From assembly GCA_963675595.2 (NCBI GenBank), contig CAXXLZ010000002.1, forward strand, positions 2,592,001-2,656,000: a DNA stretch of 64,000 nt, read 5' to 3'. Below, one piece after another: positions 8,489 to 30,382 of this stretch. The translations under genes and the position numbers were made by a program. Below the pieces are notes generated by a model, which worked only from the letters and a program-made list of their open reading frames with translations, was not told the origin of the DNA and did no database searches. Position 1 is the stretch's first letter. Each line of letters begins with the position of its first letter. Source of the DNA: Thermodesulfobacteriota bacterium. Its GTDB lineage: Bacteria; Desulfobacterota; Desulfarculia; JACQYL01.

Positions 8489-8794
8489 GCGAGCAAACAA
8501 GCCGTTCGGGTATTGGTGAACCCGCTTGACAGTAGTATTTCAGGATAGGTAAGGTGAATTAATGGTTGAGTCTTTTGGAAATGCTCTCGGAAGTCAAGCC
8601 GTTTCATCCAACGCGCCTCCGGTTCCTGAACTCCCGGAACGAAGGCCCGGACGCGACCGTAACGCCTCGACGCATTAGAGAACGATTTGAGGCCACGCTT
8701 TTTCAGTTTCCATGCATCGTCTCCCTCTGCAATCGGAAGTCATGCCCGTTTAAGATTCCTTCCCGCTCTTATAGGATTGCCTGCATTCCCCTGG

Positions 8795-10624: not shown

Positions 10625-10625
10625 C

Positions 10626-13391
10626 TTGCCGCAACGGGGATCGACCTTGATCGTTTTCGGGCGGCACTTGCGTATTCCCACCGGTTTCCCACTCAAGAAC
10701 GCGATCCTGCTTCTGGTTCTTTCAATCGTGCTGTCGCCGGCAGGCAGGCTTTCTTGGTCGAAACCACCGGTGGGTGTCGCTCTCTTCGAGCAAGACGACG
10801 CATCCGATTTACGATTGCGATTTCAAGCCGTTCGTGCGGTGGACGAGATCCGGAAATTGGGACTTTCCGCACAACTCCGCATGTTAAGCCGAGTCTCTCA
10901 GGGAGACGATCTCTCCGTCGTCCCTACTCTCCTGGCTTTGATCGTTGAAGAGAAGGCCGCGGAGGCTTGTCCCGAAATCTTGTCTTTGCTCGGTTCCGAC
11001 TCCCTGGAAGTTTTCACACCCTCCGCCTACGCCTCGGCTATGCTGGGTTGCGATTCCGCAGTCTCCAAGTTGATAGAAAAGGCGCGAAATCGAGACACTT
11101 CCGAGGAATTCGCCGTTGTAGCGGCACACGCCCTCGCTCGTTTGGGCGGGAAGCTCATAGAAGCTCAAGGCGAAGAGGAGAACCCGGATGACGCGAAGGC
11201 GCGTGTTGAGGCCGTAAAGAGCGCACTCACGGAAATGCTTCTACGACCTTCCACCCGACTCCGCGCGGAAGCGGCGGGCGCTCTGAGTTATTTGGGCGTA
11301 ACCACGGGGGACGGCGGCATTCCATCCGATCTTTGGCAGGACCCCGAATTCGGCGTCCTCGCGGGAAGGCTGTTGCTTCCGCCCGCGACGGCCGACCTCG
11401 CCAACGCCCAGGACTCGTGGATCGCCCCGCGCCGTGATCCCACACGTTTCTCCGCGGTCCTCGATTCCGAGCTCCTTTCTCGTGAGGCGGCGGAAGCCGA
11501 CAACCGGCCGGGGAGCCTAAAAAATTCGGAGAAGGCATGGCAACGAGACACAGAAGCCTTGTCCGCCGTCAGGCGCTCAATTCCGGGGGGCACCGCACCG
11601 TTGCGACTTCCCGGCTACATTCTGGTCGCCCCGGACCGTGATCGGCTACCATGGGTCGAAGACCTGATGAACGGCCCCATGAACGCACCCATCGCCCTCA
11701 TGGAATGGGCGGAGGATGCTTTGAACCGGAGTTCCGAAACCGAAATGTCGGCGGTGGATTCGCTGAATCGGATTGTGAAGCACGCTTGGTCGTTGATCTA
11801 CCCCATCGGAAACCGGAACGAAAGGAGTGTGTCGGCGATTGAAGCGCCTCCCCCTGTTCATTCATCGGGAATCAACCATGAGGAGCCCTTTGACGGCGAA
11901 CCGGGGTCTTTGGACCGGCAACGGTGGAAACGGCTGCACGATATAACGGCCCGATTGATCGATGCGGTGTCGGACTTGGAAATACAATGGCGCAACGCGG
12001 TCTCCTCCGTGTCGGAAGAGGGTCGCCGACGGATGGAAGAACTCGGAAACCTGGACCCTTCCCTCGTGGTGCTCAATTCCGAGACGATCGAAACCGCCTC
12101 GAAACTCTTCAACGAATTGGACCCGACACCCGTCCTGACGGCGCAAGTCCGGCTTTTTCGGGTATTGGACGAAGAAATCCCCAATCTCAGAGCCTTTGTC
12201 GGGTGGAGTCCGGGCGGGAACGGCGACTGGGTTGAAGAGATCGAAACCGCTTTGGGCACGGTACGCCTGTATGGTCCCGCCGCCCATGAAATTCGCACCC
12301 CCGCTCTATTGATCATCGACTTCGGTGGTTCGGACTCCTGGACGCGTGACAATGGATCCGGGGATTCCACGTTCGTTCATTTGTACCTTGATTTGGAGGG
12401 GAACGACACCTTCTACAGTGCGGACTATCCGGGACTTTCCGGAGCCGTCTTGGGGACTTCCATCCTGATGGATTTCCAGGGCGACGACATCTATTCCGGG
12501 AGTGTGGGGGCACAAGGAGCGGCCGTTTTGGGATCGGGAATCCACCTGGATATGGAAGGGAACGACCGATATTACTGTGAAAGATTCTGCCAGGGAGCCG
12601 CGCTTTTCGGCGTGGGAATACTCCATGATCGTTCGGGAAACGATCTGTATGAGGCGGGAGGCTCGGCTCAGGGATTCGGAAGCACGAGGGGAACGGGCAT
12701 TCTCCTCGAAGGCGAAGGCAACGATTCGTTCCATGCGGGCGGCCTCGACCCCGACGAAATTCGTGATCCTTCCCATTTCATCTCCCTGGCCCAGGGATTC
12801 GGTATCGGTCTCCGGCCGGAAGAGGAACACGGTGCCTTCTCCGGGGGTATCGGCCTGCTCATCGAACTAAACGGAAATGACCGGTACGAGGGTGACGTTC
12901 TCGCTCAAGGGTTGGGCGTCTGGTTCGGGATGGGCGCCATCCTCGACTTTGGCGGAGAGGATTCATACTCTTTGTTCAACTACGGCCAAGGAATGGGCAT
13001 GCACGCAGGGGTCGGCCTGCTGCTGGATCTCGACGGCGGGGACCGATACAAGGGCCGCCACCACGCCATGGGATCCGGACTGGACCGGGGCATGGGGATT
13101 CTTTTCGACGCGGCGGGTGACGATCATTACACGAGCATTTCCGATTCTCTGGGGTCCGGAGTGAAACCCCTCGGGCTGGGAATCCTGGTAGACCACATGG
13201 GAAACGACGATTACACCGCAGAGGTGGGGTTGGGCTACAGCCGCCGGCCCGCCTACTCGCCGAGCCTTTGGCCCACGGGACTCTTCTTCGATCGTGAGGG
13301 TGACGATCGCTACATGGGAAGAGCCGGAAAAGGCCGTGACGGTTTCTATTGGATTCAGAATCGTGGCGGCTTGGGAGTGGATGGAGGATAA
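10626..13391 (+). CDS. exported protein with N-terminal HEAT-like repeats and C-terminal Gly-rich DxxGxDxY repeat solenoid
   Basis: Hydrophobic N-terminal signal; AAHALARLG and RAEAAGALSYLG HEAT-like helices; about 12 repeats such as DLEGNDTFY, DFQGDDIY, DMEGNDRY, DRSGNDLY, DAAGDDHY, DREGDDRY. Confidence 0.75.
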   Translation: MPQRGSTLIVFGRHLRIPTGFPLKNAILLLVLSIVLSPAGRLSWSKPPVGVALFEQDDASDLRLRFQAVRAVDEIRKLGLSAQLRMLSRVSQGDDLSVVPTLLALIVEEKAAEACPEILSLLGSDSLEVFTPSAYASAMLGCDSAVSKLIEKARNRDTSEEFAVVAAHALARLGGKLIEAQGEEENPDDAKARVEAVKSALTEMLLRPSTRLRAEAAGALSYLGVTTGDGGIPSDLWQDPEFGVLAGRLLLPPATADLANAQDSWIAPRRDPTRFSAVLDSELLSREAAEADNRPGSLKNSEKAWQRDTEALSAVRRSIPGGTAPLRLPGYILVAPDRDRLPWVEDLMNGPMNAPIALMEWAEDALNRSSETEMSAVDSLNRIVKHAWSLIYPIGNRNERSVSAIEAPPPVHSSGINHEEPFDGEPGSLDRQRWKRLHDITARLIDAVSDLEIQWRNAVSSVSEEGRRRMEELGNLDPSLVVLNSETIETASKLFNELDPTPVLTAQVRLFRVLDEEIPNLRAFVGWSPGGNGDWVEEIETALGTVRLYGPAAHEIRTPALLIIDFGGSDSWTRDNGSGDSTFVHLYLDLEGNDTFYSADYPGLSGAVLGTSILMDFQGDDIYSGSVGAQGAAVLGSGIHLDMEGNDRYYCERFCQGAALFGVGILHDRSGNDLYEAGGSAQGFGSTRGTGILLEGEGNDSFHAGGLDPDEIRDPSHFISLAQGFGIGLRPEEEHGAFSGGIGLLIELNGNDRYEGDVLAQGLGVWFGMGAILDFGGEDSYSLFNYGQGMGMHAGVGLLLDLDGGDRYKGRHHAMGSGLDRGMGILFDAAGDDHYTSISDSLGSGVKPLGLGILVDHMGNDDYTAEVGLGYSRRPAYSPSLWPTGLFFDREGDDRYMGRAGKGRDGFYWIQNRGGLGVDGG

Positions 13392-13443: not shown

Positions 13444-14385
13444 TTACTTGAATTTCCTTTTCAAAGCCTGATAACGATCCAACAATTGGCTTTGCTGTTT
13501 CCAGTCGGGATATTTGGCCAGTTCGGCCATGGTCTTTTCGATCCGCTTATCGAGAGGCGGGTGCGTGGAAAACCATGAGCCGCTTTTCTCCGATTTGTCT
13601 TCCCTGGCCTTCAGACTCCGCAACACCTCGATCATGCCGTTGGGGCCGTACCCGGTCCTGTAGGCGGTTTCCATAGCCGACGCGTCCGCTTCGAATTCCA
13701 TCCTCTGGTCCAGCCCTTTGTCGAACAAAACCGTCTGAAGATCTCCGATCATATTCTCGAACTGCTGTCCCTTTTCCCCTTCCATGGCGGCTGCGGTGAC
13801 CTTGCCTACTCCTTGAAGGAACCGCGCACGCCTGATGGACTGGAGAGCGTGCTTATGGCTCACATGGGCCACTTCGTGGGCCAGCACATTGGCGACCTGT
13901 GCTTCGGTCTGCATCATTTTCATCAGCCCATAGCTGATGAAGATGATGCCGCCGGGGCAACTGAACGCATTCAACAAATCGCTGTCCACCACCACGAACC
14001 GATAGGGAATGCCGGGTCGGATGGAATTATCGGCCAACGCCGTGCCCAACACGTTGACATACTCCTGAAGGTCGGGGTTGTCCACGGGCATGCCGTATCT
14101 CGCGAATCCCTCCAAAGCCAGGCTCTCCCCGATGGTACGCTCCGTGTCGTAGTCGATTTCCATGCTCCCCTCCACCAAGGAGCCGATTCCCTCGAAAAGC
14201 TTCCGCTCTTTGGAGCCTTCTTTGGTCAACGCATCCAGCAACCCGGCCACACGCAGTTCCGAGGAAGCCGCCGATTTCTCGACCGACGCCTCTTGTGTTC
14301 CGGTCCGATCCACCGGCGCCGCGGGACAACGCCCCCCAGCCGAAAGGGCAATGAAAGCCACGATGAGCAGGCATCCATATTTCAT
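13444..14385 (-). CDS. exported M48-family zinc metallopeptidase (BepA/YggG-like)
   Basis: Signal peptide; LNAFSCPGG; VLAHEVAHV (HExxH); EFEAD; FSTHP; SD GGAAAGGA before ATG 14385. Confidence 0.92.
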   Translation of the reverse strand: MKYGCLLIVAFIALSAGGRCPAAPVDRTGTQEASVEKSAASSELRVAGLLDALTKEGSKERKLFEGIGSLVEGSMEIDYDTERTIGESLALEGFARYGMPVDNPDLQEYVNVLGTALADNSIRPGIPYRFVVVDSDLLNAFSCPGGIIFISYGLMKMMQTEAQVANVLAHEVAHVSHKHALQSIRRARFLQGVGKVTAAAMEGEKGQQFENMIGDLQTVLFDKGLDQRMEFEADASAMETAYRTGYGPNGMIEVLRSLKAREDKSEKSGSWFSTHPPLDKRIEKTMAELAKYPDWKQQSQLLDRYQALKRKFK

Positions 14386-14404
14386 GGTTGTTCCTTTCCA
14401 AATC

Positions 14405-14917
14405 TCATTCAGCGTATTCACCCACTTTGCCGTCACGCAAGAAGCTCGTCACCTCTTGCTGAGTCACTTTCACGGCCAGGACTTGATCCAGAGCTTTTCT
14501 GTACTTCTCGGGTGTTTCCTTCATGGACGCGTATTTCTCGGTTTCCTTGGAGAGACCGCGCATACTTCGAGCCGTATCCGCCTCATCCGCCTTGATGCCG
14601 CTCCCTCCCAAAGCTGCGAATAGATCCGCCCCTTCCCTTTTTACTTCCGCGGAAGGCGGCGTATCGGAGACCCGGCCTCTGTACACCCAACCCTTTTGGC
14701 CTTCCGAGGTCTTGACACGGTACCACTTATCGTCCTTTTCCATCACCGAAAGTTCGGCTCCCAAGGGCAGCCCCACCACCGTTTTCGAAGAGGCTTTCTT
14801 ATCTTCCTTGAGTTTGGTTCCCTCGGAGGTCACGTACATCGTTTCCTGAGCCACAGCGGATGACAACCAGCAGACCAGAAATAAAGGGATCATCCATGCG
14901 AGATTCCTTGGTTTCAT
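14405..14917 (-). CDS. exported bacterial SH3-domain protein
   Basis: Signal peptide ending AVA-Q; SH3b pattern LPLGAELSVMEKDDKWYRVKTSEGQKGWVY; SD GAGGAGGAG. Confidence 0.85.
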   Translation of the reverse strand: MKPRNLAWMIPLFLVCWLSSAVAQETMYVTSEGTKLKEDKKASSKTVVGLPLGAELSVMEKDDKWYRVKTSEGQKGWVYRGRVSDTPPSAEVKREGADLFAALGGSGIKADEADTARSMRGLSKETEKYASMKETPEKYRKALDQVLAVKVTQQEVTSFLRDGKVGEYAE

Positions 14918-14990
14918 GTAACTTCTCCTCCTCTTTGTCCTTCGGCGATAACCGAGCCGCGGTCCATCGCCCACTGCATGATTTGCTCAC

Positions 14991-17900
14991 CTATTGATAA
15001 TCGCCGACCAAAACGAAGGCCCCCCAGTAGCCTGGATGGGGAAAACGATTCTTCACGTGAAGCATCGCCTTGCGAAGACTTTCCGACTTCTCTTCTCGAG
15101 TGTACTGCCGGTAGAACTGTTTGATCAACATGCCCGTGGAGATGTCGCTGACCCTCCAGAGAGTGGAAATCAGGGCGTGGGTTCCCGCATATAAAAAGGA
15201 ACGGTTCATACCGATGACATCATCGCCTTTGGTCACTCGACCGAGGCCGGTCCGACAGGCACTCAGAACCACAAGATCCGCATTGATGTCGAGCCCGAAC
15301 ACCTCACCGGCTTCAAGATTCCCGTCCTCTTTCAGGTCCTTGACGAGCTTTACCGAAGAGAACAGCGGATTCACCGGATCGAATTCACCGTGAGAAGCGA
15401 AGTGAATGATGCCGAATTTCCCGATATTCGCGACGATCCAGCTTTCCGTGGCCTTTTCACCGGTGAGTACCGTCACGTCCGGAAAATTCCAGTGAATGGT
15501 CTCCACCTCACGCTCCGCAAAGGGCAGTTCGAGCGCCGGGTTGTCAAGAGCCGGGTTGCCCACGGCGAGTACCCGCGTATTCTTCGCAGCTCCCCTTCTC
15601 TCCAATGTATATTTGAGCACGCCGGCGCTGGGGAGGTAAAAAAGCGGATACCGATCCACGAGATAGGACTTCCCGTTGAATAGGACGGCAAAGGAAAGGT
15701 AGTGCAGAGGTCCGTGGGGTACGATGCCCAAGACCCGCACTCCTTCCAGAGAAGGAAGTTTGCCCAACAACAAGTCGTAAATCTCTCGAGACCTGTCTTC
15801 CAGAGGCTCAAGATTCTGAATCATGCGCCGGTAACCGAGTATGGTTTCGCCGAGGCTCTCCCGCCCCAAGGGGGTTTGCACCAACTCGAAAGAACCGGAA
15901 CGAACCACCCAGCACAACACACGATCCGCTGTAACATAATAAGATAACAGCGCCGTGTCCGCGGCGATGAGTCCCCGAACCTCATCCAGGGTCATGGGGG
16001 CCACGCTCACCAGGGAGGCCAGTTCGGGATTCCGGGCTTGAATCTCCAGGAGGAGGTCCCGATAATCATCGTTCAGCCCTTGAAGCGCCTTGTCGAACAC
16101 TTCCTTTTCCGCTGGAGAATTTGCCTGCGCCGACAATGTTTCCTGCTCCCGTATGCGGGAACGCAGAGCATTCAAACGGTCGTAGTGTTCGCGGTCGGCT
16201 CCCCTCAGGGAAAGCTTTTGGTTCCCCAGCAAATCGATGAGGTTTCGAGCCCGGGACCGTTCCGCCGCGTTGAAGGCGTCCTGAGGCAATCCCATATCCA
16301 CGAGCACTTCCACCAAGGCCTCATAGACCGCCGTCTTGTTCGAAATGAAGCCGTCCTTGAGACGGTCCAGTTTGATTTCCGCCCGCATCCCCTCGATGAC
16401 GTCCACCGCCTGAGCCAGCAGGTCTCTAGCCTCCGCCCGTCGTCCCGCTCCAAGTTCGATCCGGGCCAAGCCGTATAGCGCGCGCCATATGCTCTCTCGG
16501 AGCGCCATGGAACGGGCGGCGTCCAATGCCCGGCCGTAAACCTCGCGGGCTTCGGACTCCCTGCCCAAGTCAACCAAAGCCTCCGCCAGAACCAGCAAGG
16601 TTTTCGATTCGTTGATCCGGTTTCCTATAGCCGAGGCTTCACCAAGGGCTTCCTCGAGCAACGGAACCGCCTCGTCGGTCCGACCGATACGCATGAGGGT
16701 CTGGGCTTTGTTCCTCAAATCGTAGGCCACGGCCCAGCGGGACTTGAGTTTTCGATCGATGGCGAGGGCCCGCTCCAAAGAGTCCAAAGCCTCGTCGTAG
16801 CGCCCCATCTCCCTGTATACCAGTCCCATATTGTTCAGCGTGGTGGCGACTTCATCCTTCCTCACCCTTAGCTTTTCGGCTCGTTCCAGACCATCTTCGA
16901 GGTCCCGCAACGCGCGTTCGTTGTCCCCCAGCGTCCACCAAGTCAGGCCGGAAGTATTGAGCGCGATGACCTGCTCCAAGGCCCAGTTGTGCTCACGCGC
17001 CAGGTTATGGGCGGTACGCTGCAGTTCGAAGGCCTCCTGGTAGCGGCCTTGAAACCAAGCGTTGTCGGCCTGTTCGATGATGATCCGCGCCCTCAGCCTT
17101 TCTTCCTCCGGATCATCCCGTATCAAATTCAGAGCTCGGGCGTATCTTTCGTCCGCACCGGGAAAGTCCCCCAGCAGACGACAACAACGTCCCATATCCA
17201 GGAGCATGCCGGCCATGTCCGCCGTGGCGCCCATCCCGCTGTAGATTTCATAAGCCTTCTCGTAGTTCAGCTTGGCCCGTGCGTAGTTGCTCAGCCGCAG
17301 GTCCAAAATCCGGCCGATCCCGACATATTGTCGGGCCAGGAGTTCCGATTTTCCCAGCTCCGCACTCAGACTCGCGGCGTCCTGAAAACGTTTCAGCGCT
17401 CGGTCGTATTCCGCGGCGTTTTCCAGCACCACTCCCAAGTCGGCCAATGCCTCGGCGTACAGTTCTCCAAGGTCCAGGTTCTCCATCATTTCGGCCGCTT
17501 GCTCCAAGGTGGAAATCGCCTCCTCGTACCGCTCGGCGCGCGCAAGCACCAGCCCCAGCCTCAGAAGCGCTTCCGCGTGTTGTTCCGAGTCCGGACGCAC
17601 CCCTTCCCAAAATGTGGCCAGGGTCCGGGCGTATTTTTCGGCCTTGTCGAGACGGTCGATGCGAAAAGCGCTTTCCCTGGAATATTTGTATAAGTCGGGC
17701 AGATAGTTCTTCAGCGCATCCACTTCCAGCGCCACATCGAGAGCGCTCTCGAAATCCGCCAAGGCGTCGCCGAATTGATTTTTCCGGTAGGCCCCCACTC
17801 CTCCTCGCACATAATCGTTGAATCGATTCTTCCCGAATTCGACGGCGGCTTCCGGCTCCATGCCCCAATAGCCCGAGTAGAACCAATTTGAGACGGTTTC

Positions 17901-20900
17901 GCCTTCCGCAAGAGCGGCTCGATAGCCTTCCAACGCGGATCGATCTTCATAGCTTTTCAGGAACGTCGCCACAAATGATTTGATCTCTCCTTGAGACGGC
18001 GACCACAGAACCGTGGGACAGCCCATCAGCGAAAGGAGGTGCGCCGGGGCATAGGCCGACCCTTTAGGCGGTAGAGACAGCATCATCAGAGAAACATTGG
18101 ACAACCGCCCGGCCAACCTTTCGAGAGGAAACCGCACGCCTCCGGACAACTCGAAGGCGGGAAAGGTTTCTCCTCGAACGCCCGGACGCGTCGGCACCGT
18201 GACGGCCAAATAGGTTTTCGGGTTGAGGATCACGGTATGGGATTCTCGCAAGCGGTCCAACATTTCGGGGAAGTCGGAACCCGCGCCCATGGTTGTGACC
18301 TCGTATCCGGCTTCCCGAAGCGACCGGCTGAGTTCGTCCGTGGCGGACGATTCCGGTAGTCCGATCATGAGCAGATTACGTTTGAAGGGCTTGCGGGAAC
18401 GAAATGAACGCACCAAGTGAGTCGCGTTCAAAGCCGTCGGCGTTCCCGACGACAAACCGAGAGCCCTCGGCTGTTCATAGGCCCAAATCTCCAAGGTCCC
18501 TTCCCGCGAAACGGGCCTCCCACCCGTCTTCCATTGAGTGACCTGGAAATCGTCCGGACTGAGGGAGAACGCCAACCAAGGCTCCGGATCGCCTGGAAGA
18601 GCGTACCAGCGGACGCAGACCCCGTTGTCGGGGAGGCTCTCCATGACTTCCACCGCCTCCACCGGCATGGGAACAAAAGCGGCAAGGAGGCCTTTGGAAC
18701 CCGGCTCGTTCAAGAACCGAGCGGCTCCCTCAATCTCCCGTTGATATGTTTCCACCAAAGCCTTGAGATCAGGATCCTCGCTCGACTCCCTTCCTTCGCT
18801 CACCGCCCGTTCCGCAACCTGGTCCAAATGGGCCGACAATCCCATTACAATCAGAATGCGGTTCCGTTCCTCCTCGGTGGCGCCCAAGGCTGCGGGGCGG
18901 GGCAGGCGTTCCCGGTCCTTCCCGAGCTTGAGGTCCAGAAGTTCCCGCTCCTGATCCGCCCGAGTAGAAAGGTATTCCCGATCTTCTTCCGGTGCCTGTT
19001 GGAGAGCGCTTTCCAAGTCTCGAAGCGTGAGAAGTCCTTTGTAGGATTTCGCCGCGAGCTTTCGGTCCTCCTCCCCGACACCCGCGAGGAGTAAGGGAGT
19101 CAGTCGTTGGACTCTTTCGATCTCCGAGAGCCGTTCAATCAGATTAAAGGCATCCTCCGACAGTTCTTGATCCAACATTTCTTTGATCAGCGGCGCGAAT
19201 CCCGAAGTGACTTCAAGGGGTCCGCAGTCCGCCTCGAAAAGAGGAACCTTGCCCAGCACTTCGAGCGCTTCACGATATCGTCCCAGGACGAGCAGGGCCC
19301 GCCATTCCAGAGCGGGAAGCAATCCTTTGCGTGCGGATTCCAGGGCCTTCTCTGCGAAGCTTCGAGCTTTTTCCCGGTCCCCGAATTCCTCAACGCCCCG
19401 GCAAAGATTCAGCAGCACGACGCTTCGCAGAGCCAAGGCCTTCCGATTCCGGGCAACGGAAGGGGAATCGAGCAGTGTCTCCGCTCTGAAGAAGTGCCCC
19501 ACGGCCGATTCCAGGAGAGCGGCCTCTTCCGCCCGGCCTTCAACATCCGTATCCTTCGCCCCGAGCGCGGCGTTCAACAGGAAAACCCCCATGGCGTTAT
19601 GGTAGGAGGCCGGAATCAGATTCTCGAGGACGGTGGGGAATCGAGCCATCAACATTGTAACGCGCCGGTCCAGGGCCATGAGCCGCGAACGTCGGCCTTC
19701 TCCTTTTGAGGATTCGGAGAAATCCCGTGAGAGGCACAAAGCCATGTTGGACACGTTGACGGCCGAACTGACGGGGTTGCCCAGACGGAGCGCGATTTCC
19801 GCCGACCGCTCGAAATCATCAAAGGCGTCCAGAGGTCGCCTGCGAGCGAAAGCGAGAAGCCCCGCCCGGTGGGCCAGCAAAGAGACACCGTAAAGGTCCT
19901 CTTCTCGAATCGGTTTGCCTTGGGGATACCGGGCCCATTCCCGTCTTACCGCATCTTCCGCGAGTTCCAGCGCCCCGAGTTCCGTCTGAATGCGTGCCTC
20001 GAAGGTCTCCGCCAGTCTCTTTTCCTGTTCCTCGCTGAAGCCGTACAAAGCCTGTGTGGCTCCGGTCTTGTCCAAAGCCACATCCAAGGTAAGGCTTACA
20101 AGGGCGCTCTGTTCTCTGGTGTCCTTTTTTGGGGGAGCGGTCCCATGAGCGGAAAGCAGGTCCAACACCTCACGGAAACCTTCAAGAGACTGTTTCAGCA
20201 GTTCCTCCCGAGCGGCTCCGGACATGCCCCCGGCTTCCATGTAAGCGCAATAGGCGGCGGAACGACGATTCTTGGCAAGGTTTTCCTCTCGCCCCATCTT
20301 CCGATTCAAATGGAACGCCTTCAGGAAGGAGTCACGGGCCGCCGCCCACTCTCCGGCTTCCTGGTACGCCAAGCCCAACCGATCCAACATCTCCGCCTTT
20401 AACTCGAGAAGACGTTTCGGAAGTTCCAGCGCCTCCCGAACCCGCTTCGCCATATGGGAAAGGGTTTGAATCGTTTCCTCAGGCTTGTCGAGGATCAAGG
20501 GCGGCAGTTGTTCGATAATCCGTTCCTGCTCTTCAAGCAGACCTTCCACCGCCCGACGATACTCTTCCCAGGACGGGTCGGGAGGCGGAGGCACCGTCCG
20601 CCGACTCACCTGAAAAAGCCGGTCGTTCAGCGCCGACTGTTTAACCGCCATGCCGTCGGCCCGGTCTTTCAGTCCCGGCTCTTCTCGGGCCGGTATGAGC
20701 ACCCGGTCGGAAATATACCGCTCGATGCGCCCGAAAAGCTCCGAGGCTCGACGAGGCTCGATGCGTTCATCGATGAGGTCCAGCGCTTTTCCATAGGCCT
20801 CCACGGGCTTCAGCCGGTCCCCCGACTGAAAGGCCGAAGCGCCGAATCTCCGATAAAACAGGACCTCGGTGTCGGCATTGTCGAAGGGAACTTCTGTTTG

Positions 20901-23552
20901 CGATCGACGGGAATAAAGGTCGAAAGCTCGTGCGTACCGACCCAGCAGGAAATGGATGTTTCCCATGTTCAAGAGCAGATGGGCCCGGTTCTCCGGATTA
21001 AACCGAGGGTTGTTCAGAAAGTAGGCTTTTTGGTAGGATTCCAGAGCCTTTTCCAAAAAGTCGGGTCGATGATAGACGGTTTCGAGCACCTCGTATACAT
21101 ATCCAAGGGTCTGGTGGAAAAATTCGATTTGACCCTGTTGCCGGATGCAGGATTCAAGCAGGCTTTGTGCTTCCTCCAACGCGGGCTCGGTATCGAGATA
21201 GGTGAGGCACAACCCTGCGGCGTATCTCGCCGTCACGTCGTTGGGTCGTTCCTTCACGCGTTTCCGGTATTCTTCGAGTACCGAAGTGATTTCTCCCTGA
21301 GCGGCCGCGCACTTGACATACCCTCGGTGCGCCTCCACCAAGTCCCATTCCTCCCGAATGAGATTCCGAAACATGGATCGGGCGGAGGGAACCTCTCCCA
21401 GGCGATACAGAAATTCCGCCGCGGCAACGGACTTCCGGATGTAGCCCTCGCGAGCCAATCGATAGACATAATCTTCATAGGGCCTGATCGATATTTCTTT
21501 TTCATAAAGGTCCAATGCCCGGCGAAAGCGCTCTTCGCGGTATAAAATCTCGGCCAGGGCCAGTCTCGCGGCCGCAGTCTGATTGCCGTACGGGAGAAAA
21601 TAATCCAGTACGTTGCGATAGGCTTCCTTGGCTTTCGACCATTCGTCGGCGGCGTAATACAGGTCGCCGATCCGATTCCAGGCCCCCATGGCCAGACCAG
21701 GAAGGGAACCCCTGTATTGGTCGGCAATCCCGGAGAGTTGGGATACACGATCTTCCAGTGAAGCCTCGGGCCGTTCCGATATCGCCATGTCCAGAATCCT
21801 CTCGATGGCGGCATCGGACCACTTCCACACGGCCGAATATTTCTCCACGACCTCCACATAGGCCGGGAGCACCAAATCCATGTTCCCCAAAGTGCGATAC
21901 GCGTCCGCTCGCAACACCCGAGCTTCGGCCGAGAGGTCACGTTCTCCGTTTCCTTGCCGGATCACCCAATCCAGCAACCCGACGGCCTCCGATAGACTCT
22001 CGGAGCCCGTCCCGTGTTCCATGAGCAGTACGGCCCGGTCCAAACGACTCCTGAGTGTGACCCGAAGCTCACCGGGAGTCTCCTCGGCTATGCGCGACAG
22101 GCGATCAAGCGCCGAGTTCAAACGGTTGCGCCGCTTCCCATCGGAAGAAGCGCCGGCCAAGGCTTTCCGCCCCTCGATGAGAGCGCGACCGAGGCGGCTG
22201 AGGGCCGCTTCGGGGAGGATTTCCGGGTAGGACGAAACTCCTCGGGAGAAAGCCGCGGCGGCGGCCTCCGGTTTGCCGAGGTTGAGGTAAAGATCGCCGA
22301 TGAGGTAAAGAGCCCGGGCACAAAGTGCGCGAGCCTCCGGGAACGCTTCCACCACCCGGTAATACGCCAAAACCGCGAGCAGATCGTCGGGAGGATACTT
22401 GTCCGCGATGCGGGCGGCGAGTTCCATCTGCCCGTCCGCTTCCCGCTCGGTGGGGATTTCCCCAAGTGCGGGGAGAGTCCACACGTTGCCGACGCCGCTG
22501 CGGGAAGACAGGAAATACAGTCGCCCACCCCCCACCATGGGTTGAAGCGCTTCATAAGAAGCCGAAGTAACGGGGAACACGCCGGATTCCGGCGAATGCG
22601 CCTGCGTCCTAAAAACTACCGGCGGGACTTCCCGCCCGCGTTGCGACTCGTCTAAGTCGTGCGATTCAATACGAGTGAAGTAAACGCTTTCCCCGTCCGG
22701 CGACCATTGGGGATACAAGTCTCGAGCCGGACCTTGGGTCAAAGCCTTCGAAACCCCGGTGGCAATATCCAGCAGATAGATGTCTCCGCCCGGATCTTCC
22801 CGGAAGGAGACATAAGCCACTTGATCCCCTCGGGGTGAAAAGGCGGGAAAGGAGCCGTCGCCTCCGGTTTCAAGGACTTCCGTCACCGGCCCGGGGCCTG
22901 TGAGATTCATCAGGGCCAGCTTCCGGAAACGCTCTCCGGGTCTGAGCTGATGAAACACGAGCCGTTTCCCGTCCGGAGAAAAGCTCGGCCATCCGTCTTC
23001 CGTCTCTCTTCCCGTCAGGCGACGAGGCTCGGGCGTTTGCTCGCGGGTGTCCACCAGATAGAGATCGCCCTTGACGTCATGGGCGGTGCCTGCATAAGCC
23101 ACGAGAGCGCCGTCACGAGAGACGGCCGGAGCGTACCGATCCCCGATTCCTTCATCCAGCTTGCGGGGAACCACCACCACGTCGGGATCCCCGGACCTCA
23201 ACCATAGAGAGGAAAAGTCCCGGTCGCGCTCCGTGTAAGCCATCCAACGACCGTCGGGCGTGACACAGGCGTAAGTCACCGGGTCGGGCTCGAAAGAAAG
23301 CTGCACCGGCTCGTTCACCGGGAGCCGCGGCGGCCGCACTTTCGCTTCTTTCTCGAACGGACTTCCCTCGAAATCGCTTGAAACTTCCGCAGTTGGCCGA
23401 GACCACACTTTGGATTTCAAGGACTCCCATGTGGCGCATCCCGAAAAGCACAGAAGAAGGGCGCAACAACACAGCATGGGCCAATAACCGAAGTACCGTT
23501 TGTTCTTCGGTCCCCACCCGACTGGGTCGGCGGACGGACGAAAAAGCCTCAT
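14991..23552 (-). CDS. giant (2853 aa) lipoprotein: TolB-like/PD40 beta-propeller + TPR arrays + degenerate CHAT + TPRs + C-terminal CHAT (caspase-like) protease
   Basis: Lipobox LLLCFSG-C; PD40 repeats (WPSFSPDGKRLVF, FPAFSPRGDQVAY, YPQWSPDGESVYF); many TPRs; CHAT motifs IVPHGPLHYLSF, IIHFASHG, LVVLSACRTG, STLWRV, HPGYWGAF; ATG overlaps upstream stop (ATGA). Confidence 0.92.
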   Translation of the reverse strand: MRLFRPSADPVGWGPKNKRYFGYWPMLCCCALLLCFSGCATWESLKSKVWSRPTAEVSSDFEGSPFEKEAKVRPPRLPVNEPVQLSFEPDPVTYACVTPDGRWMAYTERDRDFSSLWLRSGDPDVVVVPRKLDEGIGDRYAPAVSRDGALVAYAGTAHDVKGDLYLVDTREQTPEPRRLTGRETEDGWPSFSPDGKRLVFHQLRPGERFRKLALMNLTGPGPVTEVLETGGDGSFPAFSPRGDQVAYVSFREDPGGDIYLLDIATGVSKALTQGPARDLYPQWSPDGESVYFTRIESHDLDESQRGREVPPVVFRTQAHSPESGVFPVTSASYEALQPMVGGGRLYFLSSRSGVGNVWTLPALGEIPTEREADGQMELAARIADKYPPDDLLAVLAYYRVVEAFPEARALCARALYLIGDLYLNLGKPEAAAAAFSRGVSSYPEILPEAALSRLGRALIEGRKALAGASSDGKRRNRLNSALDRLSRIAEETPGELRVTLRSRLDRAVLLMEHGTGSESLSEAVGLLDWVIRQGNGERDLSAEARVLRADAYRTLGNMDLVLPAYVEVVEKYSAVWKWSDAAIERILDMAISERPEASLEDRVSQLSGIADQYRGSLPGLAMGAWNRIGDLYYAADEWSKAKEAYRNVLDYFLPYGNQTAAARLALAEILYREERFRRALDLYEKEISIRPYEDYVYRLAREGYIRKSVAAAEFLYRLGEVPSARSMFRNLIREEWDLVEAHRGYVKCAAAQGEITSVLEEYRKRVKERPNDVTARYAAGLCLTYLDTEPALEEAQSLLESCIRQQGQIEFFHQTLGYVYEVLETVYHRPDFLEKALESYQKAYFLNNPRFNPENRAHLLLNMGNIHFLLGRYARAFDLYSRRSQTEVPFDNADTEVLFYRRFGASAFQSGDRLKPVEAYGKALDLIDERIEPRRASELFGRIERYISDRVLIPAREEPGLKDRADGMAVKQSALNDRLFQVSRRTVPPPPDPSWEEYRRAVEGLLEEQERIIEQLPPLILDKPEETIQTLSHMAKRVREALELPKRLLELKAEMLDRLGLAYQEAGEWAAARDSFLKAFHLNRKMGREENLAKNRRSAAYCAYMEAGGMSGAAREELLKQSLEGFREVLDLLSAHGTAPPKKDTREQSALVSLTLDVALDKTGATQALYGFSEEQEKRLAETFEARIQTELGALELAEDAVRREWARYPQGKPIREEDLYGVSLLAHRAGLLAFARRRPLDAFDDFERSAEIALRLGNPVSSAVNVSNMALCLSRDFSESSKGEGRRSRLMALDRRVTMLMARFPTVLENLIPASYHNAMGVFLLNAALGAKDTDVEGRAEEAALLESAVGHFFRAETLLDSPSVARNRKALALRSVVLLNLCRGVEEFGDREKARSFAEKALESARKGLLPALEWRALLVLGRYREALEVLGKVPLFEADCGPLEVTSGFAPLIKEMLDQELSEDAFNLIERLSEIERVQRLTPLLLAGVGEEDRKLAAKSYKGLLTLRDLESALQQAPEEDREYLSTRADQERELLDLKLGKDRERLPRPAALGATEEERNRILIVMGLSAHLDQVAERAVSEGRESSEDPDLKALVETYQREIEGAARFLNEPGSKGLLAAFVPMPVEAVEVMESLPDNGVCVRWYALPGDPEPWLAFSLSPDDFQVTQWKTGGRPVSREGTLEIWAYEQPRALGLSSGTPTALNATHLVRSFRSRKPFKRNLLMIGLPESSATDELSRSLREAGYEVTTMGAGSDFPEMLDRLRESHTVILNPKTYLAVTVPTRPGVRGETFPAFELSGGVRFPLERLAGRLSNVSLMMLSLPPKGSAYAPAHLLSLMGCPTVLWSPSQGEIKSFVATFLKSYEDRSALEGYRAALAEGETVSNWFYSGYWGMEPEAAVEFGKNRFNDYVRGGVGAYRKNQFGDALADFESALDVALEVDALKNYLPDLYKYSRESAFRIDRLDKAEKYARTLATFWEGVRPDSEQHAEALLRLGLVLARAERYEEAISTLEQAAEMMENLDLGELYAEALADLGVVLENAAEYDRALKRFQDAASLSAELGKSELLARQYVGIGRILDLRLSNYARAKLNYEKAYEIYSGMGATADMAGMLLDMGRCCRLLGDFPGADERYARALNLIRDDPEEERLRARIIIEQADNAWFQGRYQEAFELQRTAHNLAREHNWALEQVIALNTSGLTWWTLGDNERALRDLEDGLERAEKLRVRKDEVATTLNNMGLVYREMGRYDEALDSLERALAIDRKLKSRWAVAYDLRNKAQTLMRIGRTDEAVPLLEEALGEASAIGNRINESKTLLVLAEALVDLGRESEAREVYGRALDAARSMALRESIWRALYGLARIELGAGRRAEARDLLAQAVDVIEGMRAEIKLDRLKDGFISNKTAVYEALVEVLVDMGLPQDAFNAAERSRARNLIDLLGNQKLSLRGADREHYDRLNALRSRIREQETLSAQANSPAEKEVFDKALQGLNDDYRDLLLEIQARNPELASLVSVAPMTLDEVRGLIAADTALLSYYVTADRVLCWVVRSGSFELVQTPLGRESLGETILGYRRMIQNLEPLEDRSREIYDLLLGKLPSLEGVRVLGIVPHGPLHYLSFAVLFNGKSYLVDRYPLFYLPSAGVLKYTLERRGAAKNTRVLAVGNPALDNPALELPFAEREVETIHWNFPDVTVLTGEKATESWIVANIGKFGIIHFASHGEFDPVNPLFSSVKLVKDLKEDGNLEAGEVFGLDINADLVVLSACRTGLGRVTKGDDVIGMNRSFLYAGTHALISTLWRVSDISTGMLIKQFYRQYTREEKSESLRKAMLHVKNRFPHPGYWGAFVLVGDYQ

Positions 23553-24136
23553 GGTTTGGCCGACCACGTTCCGTCCTCCAGTTGGATCCGCTCTCCGGGG
23601 AGAGCCGTATCTCTGTGGATTTTGGCGAAGACCTTTCTGATTTTGGGATAGTCCTCGGCCGTAAAATTCTCATTCACCTCGATGACTCGTCCCATCACCG
23701 TCTCGCGGGCCGCGTTCACTTGAGTCAGGACGGTCTCGAACTCTCCCGATTGGTAACGTGCGGCGAAGTCCTTCAAGTCTTCAGGAACATTTTCTTTTTG
23801 CAGCGGAAAAGCCGTCAGCAGGCCGTCGAGATTCTCGCCCACCCAACCCAGACGCTTGAAACGATCCACGTCGTCCGCGTGAAACGCCAGGGTCTGCATG
23901 GCTTCCTCGGCGTGTTTGTATTCCCCACTGTGCCTGGGCGGCGTCTCCACACGTCCCATGGGATCCACGCCTCGAACCGAAGAAACCAGCAAGAGATCTT
24001 TGTTCAGGGAATTGTAGGAACCCAGTACCTGGTTCTCCAGTGCGGTGCGTTCACTCACCACGTTCACATCCACCTTGGCCAACGTACAGCCGGCGGCAAA
24101 GAGCAAAAGGAGGCAAACGAATCGAAATTTCGCCAT
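23549..24136 (-). CDS. DUF1318 (YdbL-like) lipoprotein
   Basis: Lipobox FAAG-C; ERTALENQVLG; KRLGWVGENLDGLL...VNAAR...GERIQLEDGTW resembles YdbL/DUF1318. Confidence 0.75.
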   Translation of the reverse strand: MAKFRFVCLLLLFAAGCTLAKVDVNVVSERTALENQVLGSYNSLNKDLLLVSSVRGVDPMGRVETPPRHSGEYKHAEEAMQTLAFHADDVDRFKRLGWVGENLDGLLTAFPLQKENVPEDLKDFAARYQSGEFETVLTQVNAARETVMGRVIEVNENFTAEDYPKIRKVFAKIHRDTALPGERIQLEDGTWSAKP

Positions 24137-24206
24137 GTGGGCCTCTTCTTTCGGTTATCTGAAATGGAACGTTATTCGGCCGGCATTTCGGGTTCGCCGA
24201 AAGCTC

Positions 24207-27200
24207 TCAGGACCTCGATTGCACAAACCGAAGTCCTTCTTTCGGATCAACCCGAATCCCATCGGCTGAAAGAATGCGAAGAGCCTCATTCAAGGTTCCA
24301 AAGGCCGCCGCCTGTGTCGCGAATTTGTCCATTCCGGGCAGAGCGGCCAAGTTCAAGCGGTCGATCTTGGGAAGTTCCACCAAAGCGCCCTTCACTTCCA
24401 CCTCACCCCTGAGGGACAGGGCGCCGTGTGCGACTTCCATCCGAATCCATCGAGGAGAACCCAGCCGGAGCAGGGCGCGCTGTTTGACCATGGTTTCATT
24501 GCTCTCATAAGGGTCCAGGCCGTAGAGAAACCGCTCAAGGGTGCGGGAACCGATATGAGAAAGGTGTATCGTGATCTGAAGATTTTCGATCAACCGTTCC
24601 GTTTCCTGGAGCAAAGGGGCCTCCAGAAACAACTCACCGGACATTTCGGCTTCTTCGTCCGGAATATCCAAAGCCTCTCCGGCCACAAGTTTCTTGGCGT
24701 TAATGCCGGAAAAAGCCGCCCGAGCATCGAACACGAAGACTTCGTTTCGTTTGGATACCCCCAAAGACCCCGCCAGAGTCCCTCCAAGGAGTTCCAGCTG
24801 AAAAAACTCCACCTCGGGCAGACCGTTATTCAAAGAGAGGTCCATCTCGTGATGGGCGAGGGAAAGGTCCAATCCTCCGGCGGACAGGTTCAGCATCTCG
24901 AAAGCCAGAGACCGGTCGGATCGGAATCGGCCCCGGAGGTCCGCAGCGGGACGTGTCGACAGAACGTCCTCCCGCGCGTCCCCCTTCGAGTCCGCCGGTG
25001 GTTGGAGTACTTCACTCGAAAGCGACGCCTGAAAATTGTTCTCGGAGGTTCCCTCAGGAGGCTTCCGAACTCCCAACAGCTTGTATCTTTTTTCGAGCGA
25101 TACGTGACTCTCCAAACCGACGACCCGCAAAGAAGGGTCGACCTCGAGGTTCAGGTCGGGACCGGTTAGATGGATACGAGCCACGGCTTCTTCCCGCTCG
25201 GGATGTGAGGAAAGGTCCAGCCCCCCCTCCACCGTGCCGCTCATGCGGATATTCTTCAACGGCGCCATAGGACCCGGCCCTCCCGCCAATCGAAGAGAAG
25301 CGCCCAAATCCAAAGCCGGGAAACGCAAGGCGGAAGCGACAAGCCCCTCCTCGCGGTGATGGATCCAATCCAGGATATTGTCTAAAAAGACCTTGAATTC
25401 CTGGGTCAGGTTAAACTGATCCAGTCTCAAGGACTCTTCAAAGCGAAGAGTATTCAGTCCGTCCAAAGCGGCGTCGAGAGAAAGAAGGGCTTCAAGAGGC
25501 GGTTCGAGCTTCCCGATGGAAGGAACCTCCAGCAGACGTCCCATGCGTACTTTTCCTCGTAGTCGCACCTGTTCGGGCTTTCCCGCCACGAACAGAACAA
25601 TGGGCGCCGCCGTTTCCATCCCTTCCAGTCGAAACCGACCTTGCGAGGAAGACAGGTCGAAACCGACGTCCGACACATTGACGGAAGCGTCCAATCTCTC
25701 CAAAAACTCCCCCGCGTGCACCGACTTTCCCTGCGCCGTGAGTCGCGTTTTCAATGCCTGCACTTCGTTCGTTCCGGGCACTCGACCTTTAAAATCCCAG
25801 TCTATCCCCACCTTGCCGGCGGCCGTGATTCGCCGTTCGGAAGCCGGTTGCACGAGAGAAAGGACGCGCCCCACGTCGAGATTCAGGCCGCCGCGAAGGT
25901 TGAGACCTCCCAGGCCCAGGTCGGACGCCGCTGCGTCGAGGGAAAGGTCTGCGCCGGGGTCCACTTTGAGCCGTACCTTCAATCGCGGCACGTCGATGCG
26001 AAAGGGAGGCGGTCCCGTCACTTTAAACTCCGCCTCAGGCAGTTCCAGGTTCAAGCCCGCTTGCACGGAACTTTCCACTTCACTTGTCACGGACCGGGCG
26101 TCCGTCTTGAACCGGTCCAACACGACGGACAGCACAGGCCCTTCTTCCAGGACACACCGCCCTTTCAGGGAATGGGCCAAGCCGGCGACTTGAACCTGTG
26201 AAGGAGTGAACAGATTCTTCACGGATAGGGATTCCTCAAAATCAACGGTACCGGAAATCCCGAAAAGCGATGCGGGGGTTCGGTTCAGTTCTGCGACTGT
26301 AACCCGCAAGGGGTCCAGATGAGAGTCATTCAAGCGCACCGGGCGATCGCCCGCCATCCCCAGGCTTTCTGCGTCGAACCCCGCTTCGACGAAGACTTTT
26401 TGGGGAAACTGGGAATTGAGAACCGTTTCGGCACGAATCACCCGAAGGACCGCCTCTCGAACCTGAATGGACCCCGCCGGCATGCGGAAATCCAGAAAAG
26501 GCAGGGTCATCACAACGCCTTCAACTCCGAGGCGTCCCGCCCCATCGGGGACTTCTCCGACAAAGTCCATTTTTTCGATCCAAAGGGTGGTAGAGGCGGA
26601 ATCGGTCACTCCTTTGGGGGAGAGCGACAAGGCATCCGGGGCAAAGTCTTTTGCCAAGACTAGAAGTTCTCCCAAATCCAGTTCAGCGGGTCCCACGTGG
26701 AGGTTGAGGACATTTTTCCCCTGTTCGGTCTTTCGGAAATCGCCCTGCCATTTGATCCGATTTCCTTGCATGAGATGCGCCTCCCCCACTTTCATTTCAA
26801 CGAGGGAGTCATCCAGCCCGACCGAACCCGCTTGCGTCACCGTAAGATCGAGCGGTCCCAAACGCCCGTCTCCCAGCGGCCCCCCTTCAGCGGAAAGTCT
26901 CCGCACGTCCAGGTTCGCCGAAAAATCAACGCCTCGCTCCTTCTCCCTGAAAACTCCTTGGACTCGTAAGGCAATCGTGCCGGAGGTTTCAGGAAAGACA
27001 GCGGGAAAGAATGGTCGGACGGTTTCCGTCAGGGGAGTCAAATCCAGGTGCATGTCGGCTTCCATTCTGGAAGCCTCCAACGCGCCGTCCACCTTGACCG
27101 TGATCCCGGGCAACGTTGCGTCCAGGCGTACACTCGCCCGGGACGGAACAATGCGTCCCCGGCCATCGATCAGGTCCCCCAACACCGCTTCCATTCGGAC

Positions 27201-27890
27201 AGGGGGCAAATCACGGCCGTCCATGGAATGATCGGCCTCGAAGCGGAATGTAACGGGCTTCGTCCGGAGTGAAGGGATGTCCAGTAACATGGACGCCGGG
27301 GACATGGAGTAGGCATGTCCCGAGGCACGGTCCTCGGCCTTCAGTGAGAGGTCCTCCATGTTGACATGCGCCTCCAGGTCCTCCACGGGGAGAGAGAAGG
27401 CCGCCCCGTCCCGCCCTTTCGTGGGGGCCGAGGATTCCGATTCCTCCTCGGACGCGAACCGAGCCAACAGGGCATCCAGGTTGGACCTGCCGGTCTTGTC
27501 TCGTACCCAATTCGCGTTCAGCCCGCTCGCGCTCATGTTCAGGAACACAACCGGATGCAGAAAGGAGTCGACGGAAGGATCCAGGCGAAGGCTCCGAAGT
27601 TGCAGCAGCGGTTCGTCTCCGAAACTCGGATCTTCCGCGATGGAAATCCCCTGAAGAAGAATCCCTTGGGACCAGCTCCAATGAAGCCCTTCCACGCCAA
27701 CCCCGCGCCCCATCGTATCCGTCAAATACTCCGTGAGTCGCGTCCGGAACCAATCCGTTGAAACGGCGGAAGGAAGAAAGGCGACGCAGATCGCGGCCAA
27801 GACCAACAGGACGAACAAGGCCACGACCGCCCTGAGCGGCCATTTCCAAGGAAAGCGGAATTTGGTTGATGCCGAACCCGTTTCGCTCAT
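24207..27890 (-). CDS. AsmA-like / YdbH-like bridge protein (1227 aa)
   Basis: Single N-terminal TM anchor; AsmA_N-like start (LTDTMGRGVGVEGLHWSWSQGILLQGISI...GRSNLDALL); long beta-rich body; C-terminal LELLGG motif; directly upstream of a DUF1318 gene as in ydbH-ynbE-ydbL; SD GAGGGGG before ATG 27890. Confidence 0.75.
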   Translation of the reverse strand: MSETGSASTKFRFPWKWPLRAVVALFVLLVLAAICVAFLPSAVSTDWFRTRLTEYLTDTMGRGVGVEGLHWSWSQGILLQGISIAEDPSFGDEPLLQLRSLRLDPSVDSFLHPVVFLNMSASGLNANWVRDKTGRSNLDALLARFASEEESESSAPTKGRDGAAFSLPVEDLEAHVNMEDLSLKAEDRASGHAYSMSPASMLLDIPSLRTKPVTFRFEADHSMDGRDLPPVRMEAVLGDLIDGRGRIVPSRASVRLDATLPGITVKVDGALEASRMEADMHLDLTPLTETVRPFFPAVFPETSGTIALRVQGVFREKERGVDFSANLDVRRLSAEGGPLGDGRLGPLDLTVTQAGSVGLDDSLVEMKVGEAHLMQGNRIKWQGDFRKTEQGKNVLNLHVGPAELDLGELLVLAKDFAPDALSLSPKGVTDSASTTLWIEKMDFVGEVPDGAGRLGVEGVVMTLPFLDFRMPAGSIQVREAVLRVIRAETVLNSQFPQKVFVEAGFDAESLGMAGDRPVRLNDSHLDPLRVTVAELNRTPASLFGISGTVDFEESLSVKNLFTPSQVQVAGLAHSLKGRCVLEEGPVLSVVLDRFKTDARSVTSEVESSVQAGLNLELPEAEFKVTGPPPFRIDVPRLKVRLKVDPGADLSLDAAASDLGLGGLNLRGGLNLDVGRVLSLVQPASERRITAAGKVGIDWDFKGRVPGTNEVQALKTRLTAQGKSVHAGEFLERLDASVNVSDVGFDLSSSQGRFRLEGMETAAPIVLFVAGKPEQVRLRGKVRMGRLLEVPSIGKLEPPLEALLSLDAALDGLNTLRFEESLRLDQFNLTQEFKVFLDNILDWIHHREEGLVASALRFPALDLGASLRLAGGPGPMAPLKNIRMSGTVEGGLDLSSHPEREEAVARIHLTGPDLNLEVDPSLRVVGLESHVSLEKRYKLLGVRKPPEGTSENNFQASLSSEVLQPPADSKGDAREDVLSTRPAADLRGRFRSDRSLAFEMLNLSAGGLDLSLAHHEMDLSLNNGLPEVEFFQLELLGGTLAGSLGVSKRNEVFVFDARAAFSGINAKKLVAGEALDIPDEEAEMSGELFLEAPLLQETERLIENLQITIHLSHIGSRTLERFLYGLDPYESNETMVKQRALLRLGSPRWIRMEVAHGALSLRGEVEVKGALVELPKIDRLNLAALPGMDKFATQAAAFGTLNEALRILSADGIRVDPKEGLRFVQSRS

Positions 27891-30298: not shown

Positions 30299-30382
30299 GA
30301 GGGGCTTACCGGCCCGTTCAAAGGGCCCGATGAGTGCAACCTGTTACGGGAAAAGTCCCCTCGGGCCCCAAGATGTACGGAG

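Follow-up and report, generated by a model that had tools for sequence, protein, structure and literature searches.

A recurrent five-gene operon joins an AsmA-like protein and a YdbL-fold lipoprotein to exported proteases of the CHAT and M48 types

How phospholipids move to the outer membrane of diderm bacteria, and how AsmA-like bridges are assembled and regulated, are open questions, and on regulation the sole hint comes from Escherichia coli, where YdbL inhibits its bridge system in excess and is degraded by DegP (PMC13464000). In a locus of a Thermodesulfobacteriota genome, genes for a bridge-type protein and a YdbL-fold lipoprotein share an operon with those of two exported proteases. 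In the 64,000-nucleotide window analysed (the whole stretch from 2,592,001 to 2,656,000 of contig CAXXLZ010000002.1, assembly GCA_963675595.2), five adjacent genes encode what appear to be an AsmA-like protein (A), a DUF1318/YdbL-type lipoprotein (D), a giant exported protein with PD40, TPR, and CHAT domains (G), a secreted SH3b-domain protein (S), and a secreted M48 zinc peptidase (M). We are confident of several separate points: each of the five products has a signal for export or anchoring, A is of AsmA type, D has a YdbL fold, both protease sites are intact, and the genes travel together, or are found in the same genome when unlinked. That the five form one envelope module, an intermembrane bridge under dedicated periplasmic proteolysis, is a chain that we propose tentatively, its chance as a whole falling somewhat short of even.

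The genes run head to tail on the minus strand in the order A-D-G-S-M, from position 27890 down to 13444 (Table 1). The intergenic distances are 70 nucleotides (nt) between A and D, 73 nt between G and S, and 19 nt between S and M, and the stop codon of D overlaps the start codon of G in an ATGA. Four of the five starts (A, D, S, and M) are each preceded by a purine-rich, ribosome-binding-like stretch; the open frame of A extends upstream to a TTG at 28148, and that of G opens at a GTG at 23567. This set of five co-oriented genes and its spacing stand as they were described in an earlier reading of the same DNA (hereafter the sequence-only reading).

Table 1. The operon and the genes at its borders, in window coordinates (aa, amino acids).
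Feature	Positions	Strand	Length and start
A: AsmA-like, inner-membrane-anchored repeating-beta-groove-type protein (predicted)	24207-27890	-	1227 aa from ATG at 27890
D: DUF1318/YdbL-fold lipoprotein (predicted)	23549-24136	-	195 aa
G: exported PD40-TPR-CHAT giant	14991-23552	-	2853 aa from ATG at 23552
S: secreted SH3b-domain protein	14405-14917	-	170 aa
M: secreted M48 zinc peptidase, HEVAH motif	13444-14385	-	313 aa
Convergent genes at the 3' border of the operon	8687-13391	+	
Sigma-54 activator, divergent, upstream of A	28892-30298		

The arrangement recurs well outside the window's own genome. Full-length G was found in three of 41 relatives (taxon names here and below are those given by the depositors), namely the window's own genome and two of the same family, one with all five genes in order and the other with A-D-G up to the end of its contig. 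When an even sample of the phylum, 401 genomes, was queried with the family-specific residues 300-1950 of G, the protein appeared in 11 genomes from seven families. The 12 loci drawn from this sample and the two relatives comprise six with all five genes, two with A-D-G (one followed by 3.8 kb of other DNA, the other at a contig edge), two with G alone, and two on contigs that are too short. In a scan at species level, with one genome per species, profiles built from orthologues were used to score all open reading frames (ORFs) of the best 80 of 201 relatives, whose titles are of sulfate-reducer type or a generic "delta/proteobacterium". Among these 80 loci, D lies upstream of G in 57 of the 67 that could be assessed. 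A and D were counted together where at least 4.8 kb of upstream sequence was available, and there both are present in 46 of 52 loci, neither in six, and one alone in none; downstream of G, both S and M are present in 32 of 51 loci, neither in 19, and again never one alone. Thirty-six loci could be assessed on both sides: 26 read A-D-G-S-M, seven read A-D-G, and three have G alone. Since other genera and families show this order too, the operon goes beyond chance; the sequence-only reading had let its proposal hang on conserved gene order, and conserved it is. No sixth gene holds a fixed position in the flanks of these loci, and no regulator or effector gene is conserved there; the largest cluster of flanking proteins, of histidine-kinase type, comes from 14 loci in mixed positions. 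Five Desulfovibrio-type loci without S-M have an ORF of about 835 aa without a Pfam match on the same strand after G (L083:18326-20830 and four more).

The strongest argument for a shared function is that the genes keep to the same genome even where they are no longer linked. A profile search for the D subfamily in the 401-genome sample (E up to 1e-15) found both G and D in nine genomes, G only in two (79% and 86% complete), D only in none, and neither in 390. Genomes with an unlinked G have D elsewhere in seven of nine cases. All five genomes with a lone G encode a D orthologue of about 300 bits elsewhere, with A beside D in three of them; within one family (f29), D lies elsewhere in two of four genomes, both near-complete, the two misses being the genomes of 79% and 86% completeness, and an A-like gene stands 3 kb upstream of D in the one genome whose locus gave a match. 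Likewise, where S-M is missing from the locus, an M orthologue scoring 398-437 bits (paralogues score about 100 bits) is found elsewhere in four of five genomes. One genome preserves a visibly broken operon with a split giant (L115:10746-11549 and L091), in which a fragment of G (residues 68-206) follows D beside A-D and the remainder, which starts at residue 158, is encoded on the same chromosome at a distance of about 0.8 Mb. On a FastTree phylogeny of the N-terminal part of G, unlinked G requires at least five changes and loss of S-M at least six, both scattered over the tree, which points to repeated break-ups rather than old paralogues. These repeated losses of linkage are also what could be said for a purely historical adjacency, in which the A-D pair and the proteases would not be functionally coupled; such an origin would leave unexplained the conservation of order across at least seven families of the phylum sample, the co-occurrence of the genes when unlinked, and the start-stop overlap of D and G, and, already disfavoured, it seems to us scarcely credible.

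What kind of proteins does the operon bring together? The Pfam matches of A, all N-terminal, are to DUF748 (39.3 bits, cut-off 50), AsmA (19.1, cut-off 29.8), and YhdP (18.1, cut-off 46); an NCBIfam scan gave no match, and a search for homologous proteins with A as query returned three proteins only. An AlphaFold2 model of residues 28-1227, based on 50 orthologues (predicted local distance difference test, pLDDT, 82.2; predicted template-modelling score, pTM, 0.60), consists of about 55 long beta strands of 10-20 residues each in a nearly unbroken series, with two low-confidence loops. Foldseek places the LPD-3 (BLTP1) lipid-bridge complex first among PDB structures (9cap_A, E 2e-6, probability 1.00, template-modelling (TM) score 0.19), with ApoB100 ranking after it. 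Conservation of A peaks in a C-terminal block, at about residues 1080-1180. Judged by this model and by its hydrophobic N-terminus, A is an inner-membrane-anchored protein of the AsmA or repeating-beta-groove type, and its description as AsmA-like in the sequence-only reading is upheld by the serial strands and by the LPD-3 match.

D is assigned more directly. It exceeds the Pfam cut-off for DUF1318 narrowly (27.4 bits, cut-off 27), shares 25% identity with E. coli YdbL by BLASTP (E 6e-5), and gave a hit in a profile search of the PDB (E 0.013). In a structure model with a pLDDT of 84.6, the C-terminal half finds the crystal structure of E. coli YdbL (28oj) as its top Foldseek match, with E 3.6e-4, a TM-score of 0.86 by target, and a root-mean-square deviation of 2.7; modelling thus assigns a YdbL fold to the C-terminal half of the lipoprotein D, the DUF1318/YdbL type under which it had been read before. 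D is also the most conserved of the five proteins, with a mean column identity of 62% over 56 sequences. Ahead of the YdbL domain stands an N-terminal extension of about 70 mature residues that is specific to the subfamily and highly conserved, many of its residues being invariant. It is laid out as a strand-prone segment directly after the lipidated cysteine (of low confidence in the monomer), a helix at residues 32-53, and an invariant flexible loop. The same genome encodes a second DUF1318 lipoprotein (G000:C2:4591932-4595280, L107; 197 aa, 64.5 bits), whose gene is preceded by an ORF of 923 aa without a Pfam match and not similar to A.

The natural comparison for A and D is with the YdbH-YnbE-YdbL system, in which the lipoprotein YnbE is reported to lengthen E. 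coli YdbH by strand augmentation as far as the outer membrane (PMC11126948), and YdbL to bind the C-terminal helix of YnbE, to block the system in excess, and to be degraded by DegP (PMC13464000). The two loci are alike in that an inner-membrane-anchored protein of beta-groove type is followed by the gene for a small lipoprotein and in that a YdbL-fold domain is present; proteolysis is a further likeness, since DegP is proposed to set YdbL levels in E. coli (PMC13464000). The differences are several. A has 1227 aa, compared with 879 aa in YdbH, with sequence similarity undetectable; no separate YnbE match exists in this genome; D is lipid-anchored and holds its YdbL domain behind the conserved 70-residue extension, whereas YdbL of E. 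coli is a soluble periplasmic protein of about 90 mature residues; and the operon adds the 2853-aa CHAT protease, the SH3b protein, and the M48 protease.

G, much the largest of the five products, comprises a lipobox signal, a PD40 propeller (about residues 90-380), a TPR/helical scaffold, and a C-terminal CHAT domain, with Pfam scores of 189.4 bits for CHAT (residues 2587-2851) and 56.1 bits for PD40 and with matches to many TPR families. The CHAT dyad, His2721 and Cys2766, is invariant in 67 of 67 sequences. A profile of the CHAT region matches Csx29 chains in the PDB (E 0.0024) and aligns the two residues to the conserved HGE and AC motifs, which we take to hold the catalytic residues of Csx29; the profile was needed for this match, as phmmer with the same region found none in the PDB. 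These residues indicate that G keeps an intact cysteine-protease site. G scores far below the NCBIfam models for Csx29 (38 bits, cut-off 300) and the TolB equivalog (66.1 bits, cut-off 343), and what its N-terminus has in common with TolB is the PD40 repeats only. What the most distant relatives conserve of G is its first 880 residues, and when an N-terminal profile was searched against 1.84 billion cluster representatives, the best 150 matches all scored above 367 bits, most of them being proteins of 2,500-2,950 aa. A pseudo-CHAT domain in the middle of G (about residues 1540-1860), suspected by eye, found no support: hhalign against the CHAT profile gave a probability of 0.3%, and a profile search of this middle part against the PDB gave nothing below E 0.09. 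There is also a class of shorter proteins, of about 1,190-1,270 aa (P0079, P0081, P0085, P0096, and P0122), that have the whole N-terminal propeller-TPR part of G and lack CHAT in all five cases checked. Two further TPR-CHAT proteins are encoded in the window's genome (G000:C1:878113-881175 and G000:C2:878391-878729), with open frames of 1077 and 1272 aa and 32-48% identity to the C-terminal part of G.

Two kinds of characterized protein resemble G. With the TPR-CHAT proteases Csx29 (craspase) and separase it has in common the CHAT domain, as far as the profile match to Csx29 chains and the aligned His and Cys motifs indicate; those proteins differ in being cytoplasmic or nuclear and controlled by RNA or securin, and G falls far below the Csx29 model and has no cas genes nearby (none in the flanks scanned around the operon). 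The other parallel is DdvA of Myxococcus xanthus, an anti-sigma factor with a solved periplasmic TPR-CHAT domain (PMC11506125), which makes out of date the statement of the sequence-only reading that characterized TPR-CHAT proteases work on the cytoplasmic side. G is like DdvA, as reported there, in its TPR-CHAT module, its His-Cys dyad, and its periplasmic location. DdvA differs in that it spans the membrane once, has its anti-sigma domain in the cytoplasm, partners an extracytoplasmic-function (ECF) sigma factor, and regulates a CBASS-CRISPR island (PMC11506125), and G in having a signal and lipobox only, a PD40 propeller, about 2,000 further residues, and no sigma factor nearby.

The resemblance suggests a reading in which G is the principal actor, a DdvA- or craspase-like periplasmic sensor-protease that responds to an envelope, phage, or contact signal by cutting a signalling or effector target, with A and D only positioning or feeding it. 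The periplasmic TPR-CHAT domain of DdvA, with its His-Cys dyad, is proposed to start signalling (PMC11506125), the dyad of G is invariant, G stands apart from A-D in 10 of 67 loci, and its patchy distribution (11 of 401 genomes, three of 41 relatives) would suit an accessory or defence-type function. However, G has neither a transmembrane segment nor an anti-sigma domain, and the window's flanks hold no neighbouring ECF sigma; a PADLOC scan matched only a generic TPR model, on G, and no known anti-phage defence family; the absence of a conserved regulator or effector from the flanks of the loci speaks against it as well; and the strict co-occurrence of G with the D subfamily at genome level ties G to the bridge-type pair. 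We regard a sensor-protease of this kind as unlikely, though worth keeping in view.

Each of the five proteins of the window bears an N-terminal export or anchor signal, as read from the letters. Conservation of these signals was assessed by a heuristic on the orthologues recovered, which asks for a 12-residue window with a mean Kyte-Doolittle value of at least 1.9 near the N-terminus, together with a lipobox pattern. A has a hydrophobic N-terminal anchor, with a hydrophobic segment in all 51 orthologues; D has the lipobox FAAGC, with a hydrophobic segment in 63 of 63 orthologues, of which at least 55 show a lipobox; S has a signal-like N-terminus, and 38 of 40 orthologues pass. M begins with a signal-peptide-like N-terminus, and 17 of 37 orthologues pass the strict threshold, the others being fused behind S or having weaker h-regions (scores 1.5-1.9). 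The earlier statement that all five are exported or anchored is supported. G carries the lipobox CFSGC (within LCFSGC) after a KNKR segment, and 77 of 78 orthologues have an N-terminal hydrophobic signal; a lipobox is present in 16 of the 78, most of the others having an ordinary signal-peptide-like N-terminus. What the family conserves is therefore the export of G and not its lipid anchor, so that the giant lipoprotein of the sequence-only reading is right for the window protein and wrong for the family, and the suggestion, made in the same place, of export or maturation of a giant surface lipoprotein is weakened. One could still imagine that A and D are dedicated to inserting G, a lipid-anchored cargo, into the outer membrane or to carrying it across, after which S-M would mature it; the lipobox of the window's G and a report that the AsmA-like GspN helps lipoproteins reach the cell surface (PMC12439988) would fit. 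With so few lipoboxes among the orthologues, the load of A cannot in most species be a lipid anchor, and G is retained in genomes where it is unlinked from A-D, which makes the cargo idea very improbable.

The last two genes appear to make a unit. S matches Pfam SH3_3 (31.3 bits) and, below its cut-off, TIGR04211 (39 bits). In at least 80% of 41 sequences, the conserved tail of S behind the SH3 domain (about residues 110-170) shows the motifs D..RS.R and FL..G..GEY. M matches Pfam Peptidase_M48 with 105.1 bits and falls far short of the NCBIfam equivalogs BepA (88 bits, cut-off 570) and LoiP (54 bits, cut-off 365), with no TPR domain; on these scores M is a member of the M48 family and not a BepA or LoiP equivalog. 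The HExxH motif is present in 34 of 37 orthologous M ORFs, the three without it being fused S-M forms, and from this motif we judge the zinc-protease site of M to be intact; the intact sites of both proteases support the sequence-only reading. In eight loci, all Desulfovibrionaceae-type, S and M are one fused ORF, a classical sign that the two work together.

A precedent for such a pair is JspA of Sinorhizobium meliloti, an M48 protease with a LysM domain that is reported to degrade ExoR, a periplasmic repeat protein, in concert with the lipoprotein LppA (PMC10659215). There as here an exported M48 protease is joined to a peptidoglycan-binding-type module and stands with a lipoprotein and a periplasmic repeat protein; the binding module of S-M differs in being SH3b rather than LysM. 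S-M and G might be proteases that serve envelope quality control or are associated with peptidoglycan, comparable to BepA/LoiP or JspA-LppA, and that act on outer-membrane or periplasmic proteins at large, with A-D a co-regulated and mechanistically separate lipid-transport pair. In favour of this are the nearness of M to the BepA and LoiP models, the parallel between LysM-bearing JspA and SH3b plus M48 (PMC10659215), and the S-M fusions. General quality control would not predict, though, the exact phyletic match of G with a single DUF1318 subfamily (no genome with D only and 390 with neither, of 401), nor the ATGA overlap of D and G, and M, at 313 aa, has no BepA TPR domain and lies far below the BepA cut-off. 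We think it improbable as an account of the whole locus.

The reading that we prefer, an intermembrane bridge under dedicated periplasmic proteolysis, starts from the fact that a bridge-type protein and a YdbL-fold lipoprotein are tied to two proteases of their own, which suggests a bridge whose assembly or turnover is under proteolytic control. A and D would reach from the inner to the outer membrane as a bridge of the YdbH-YnbE-YdbL type, in which the lipid anchor of D, the strand-prone segment after its cysteine, and its first helix may stand in for a separate YnbE, and in which the YdbL-like domain of D may be a built-in chaperone or inhibitor. The propeller and TPR scaffold of G could recognize the bridge or an envelope cue, and G, together with a peptidoglycan-tethered S-M, could cleave D, A, or both and so control whether the bridge is assembled, licensed, or removed; these two steps are the least certain. 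On the model of JspA-LppA, S-M would act as a helper tethered to the wall, and the proteolytic control as a whole would correspond to the DegP-dependent control of YdbL that has been proposed for E. coli, here with proteases dedicated to it.

Several observations weigh against this preferred reading. Every Pfam match of A is below its gathering cut-off, and its Foldseek TM-scores are low (0.19 even for the top match), as is expected for long, twisted rods. A has no detectable similarity to E. coli YdbH (BLASTP E 0.51; hhalign probability 10%). On the side of D, a search of the genome with the YnbE family PF13617 at E up to 1 gave no match, hhalign aligns the N-terminus of D with YnbE at the lipobox only (probability 8%), and the extension of D is not common to the second DUF1318 lipoprotein of the genome, which has its own unrelated extension. 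The proteases are not constant companions either: with G unlinked from A-D in 10 of 67 loci and S-M missing from 19 of 51, the genes need not be tightly co-expressed. The CHAT-less class implies that the N-terminal part of G can work without the protease, and three of the eight fused S-M ORFs (L057, L059, and L096) have no HExxH, so that some members of the Desulfovibrionaceae-type clade may have lost the zinc site. The genomes compared are, moreover, interrelated, and the counts therefore overstate independence. Two candidate identities were rejected on the searches of A and D just given: A as a YdbH orthologue and a separate YnbE partner in the genome. The YdbH-like label of the sequence-only reading accordingly has no sequence support.

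A more specific version, which we consider a long shot, is a proteolytically licensed bridge. Here D would be a YnbE-like anchor fused to a YdbL-like inhibitor, and G would cut the SVRGVDP loop of D (residues 53-59), freeing the inhibitor and switching lipid flow to the outer membrane on or off, while S-M cleared the products at the cell wall; the trigger would be the cue read by the propeller/TPR scaffold of G. The putative YnbE-like anchor, made up of the lipidated cysteine, the segment TLAKVxVNVV, and the helix at 32-53, spans about 38 residues, and mature YnbE has 44. If this were true, a regulated switch of caspase type would be seen on a bacterial lipid bridge for the first time.

The combination of an AsmA-like/YdbL module with exported proteases of its own seems to be new: no description was found in a search of the full-text literature, with supplements outside it, in agreement with the earlier claim that no system of such composition has been characterized, and the same search returned no paper on an AsmA-like protein together with a CHAT domain and, for periplasmic TPR-CHAT, the DdvA paper only. 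The module offers a natural setting in which to ask whether an intermembrane bridge is controlled by proteolysis. It also takes a class of caspase-like proteins known almost only from the cytoplasm outside it, G being exported, and would give a function to a large, unstudied family of exported PD40-TPR-CHAT giants.

Upstream of A, a sigma-54 activator and a hybrid PAS-GAF histidine kinase (28892-32680) are divergent from the operon and absent beside the orthologous loci. A scan for sigma-54 promoters found none upstream of A or near the operon, with 16 matches in the window against 20 expected, and scans of the window for sigma-70 promoters and terminators gave no telling place that exceeds shuffled sequence. 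The convergent genes at the 3' border encode a protein of 645 aa whose sole match is the Plug domain of TonB-dependent receptors and, directly after it, a 921-aa ORF without a Pfam match. Farther out, at 635-3598 on the minus strand, lies a flagellin of 987 aa, far above the usual flagellin length, with Flagellin_N and Flagellin_C at its ends and about 730 residues between them.

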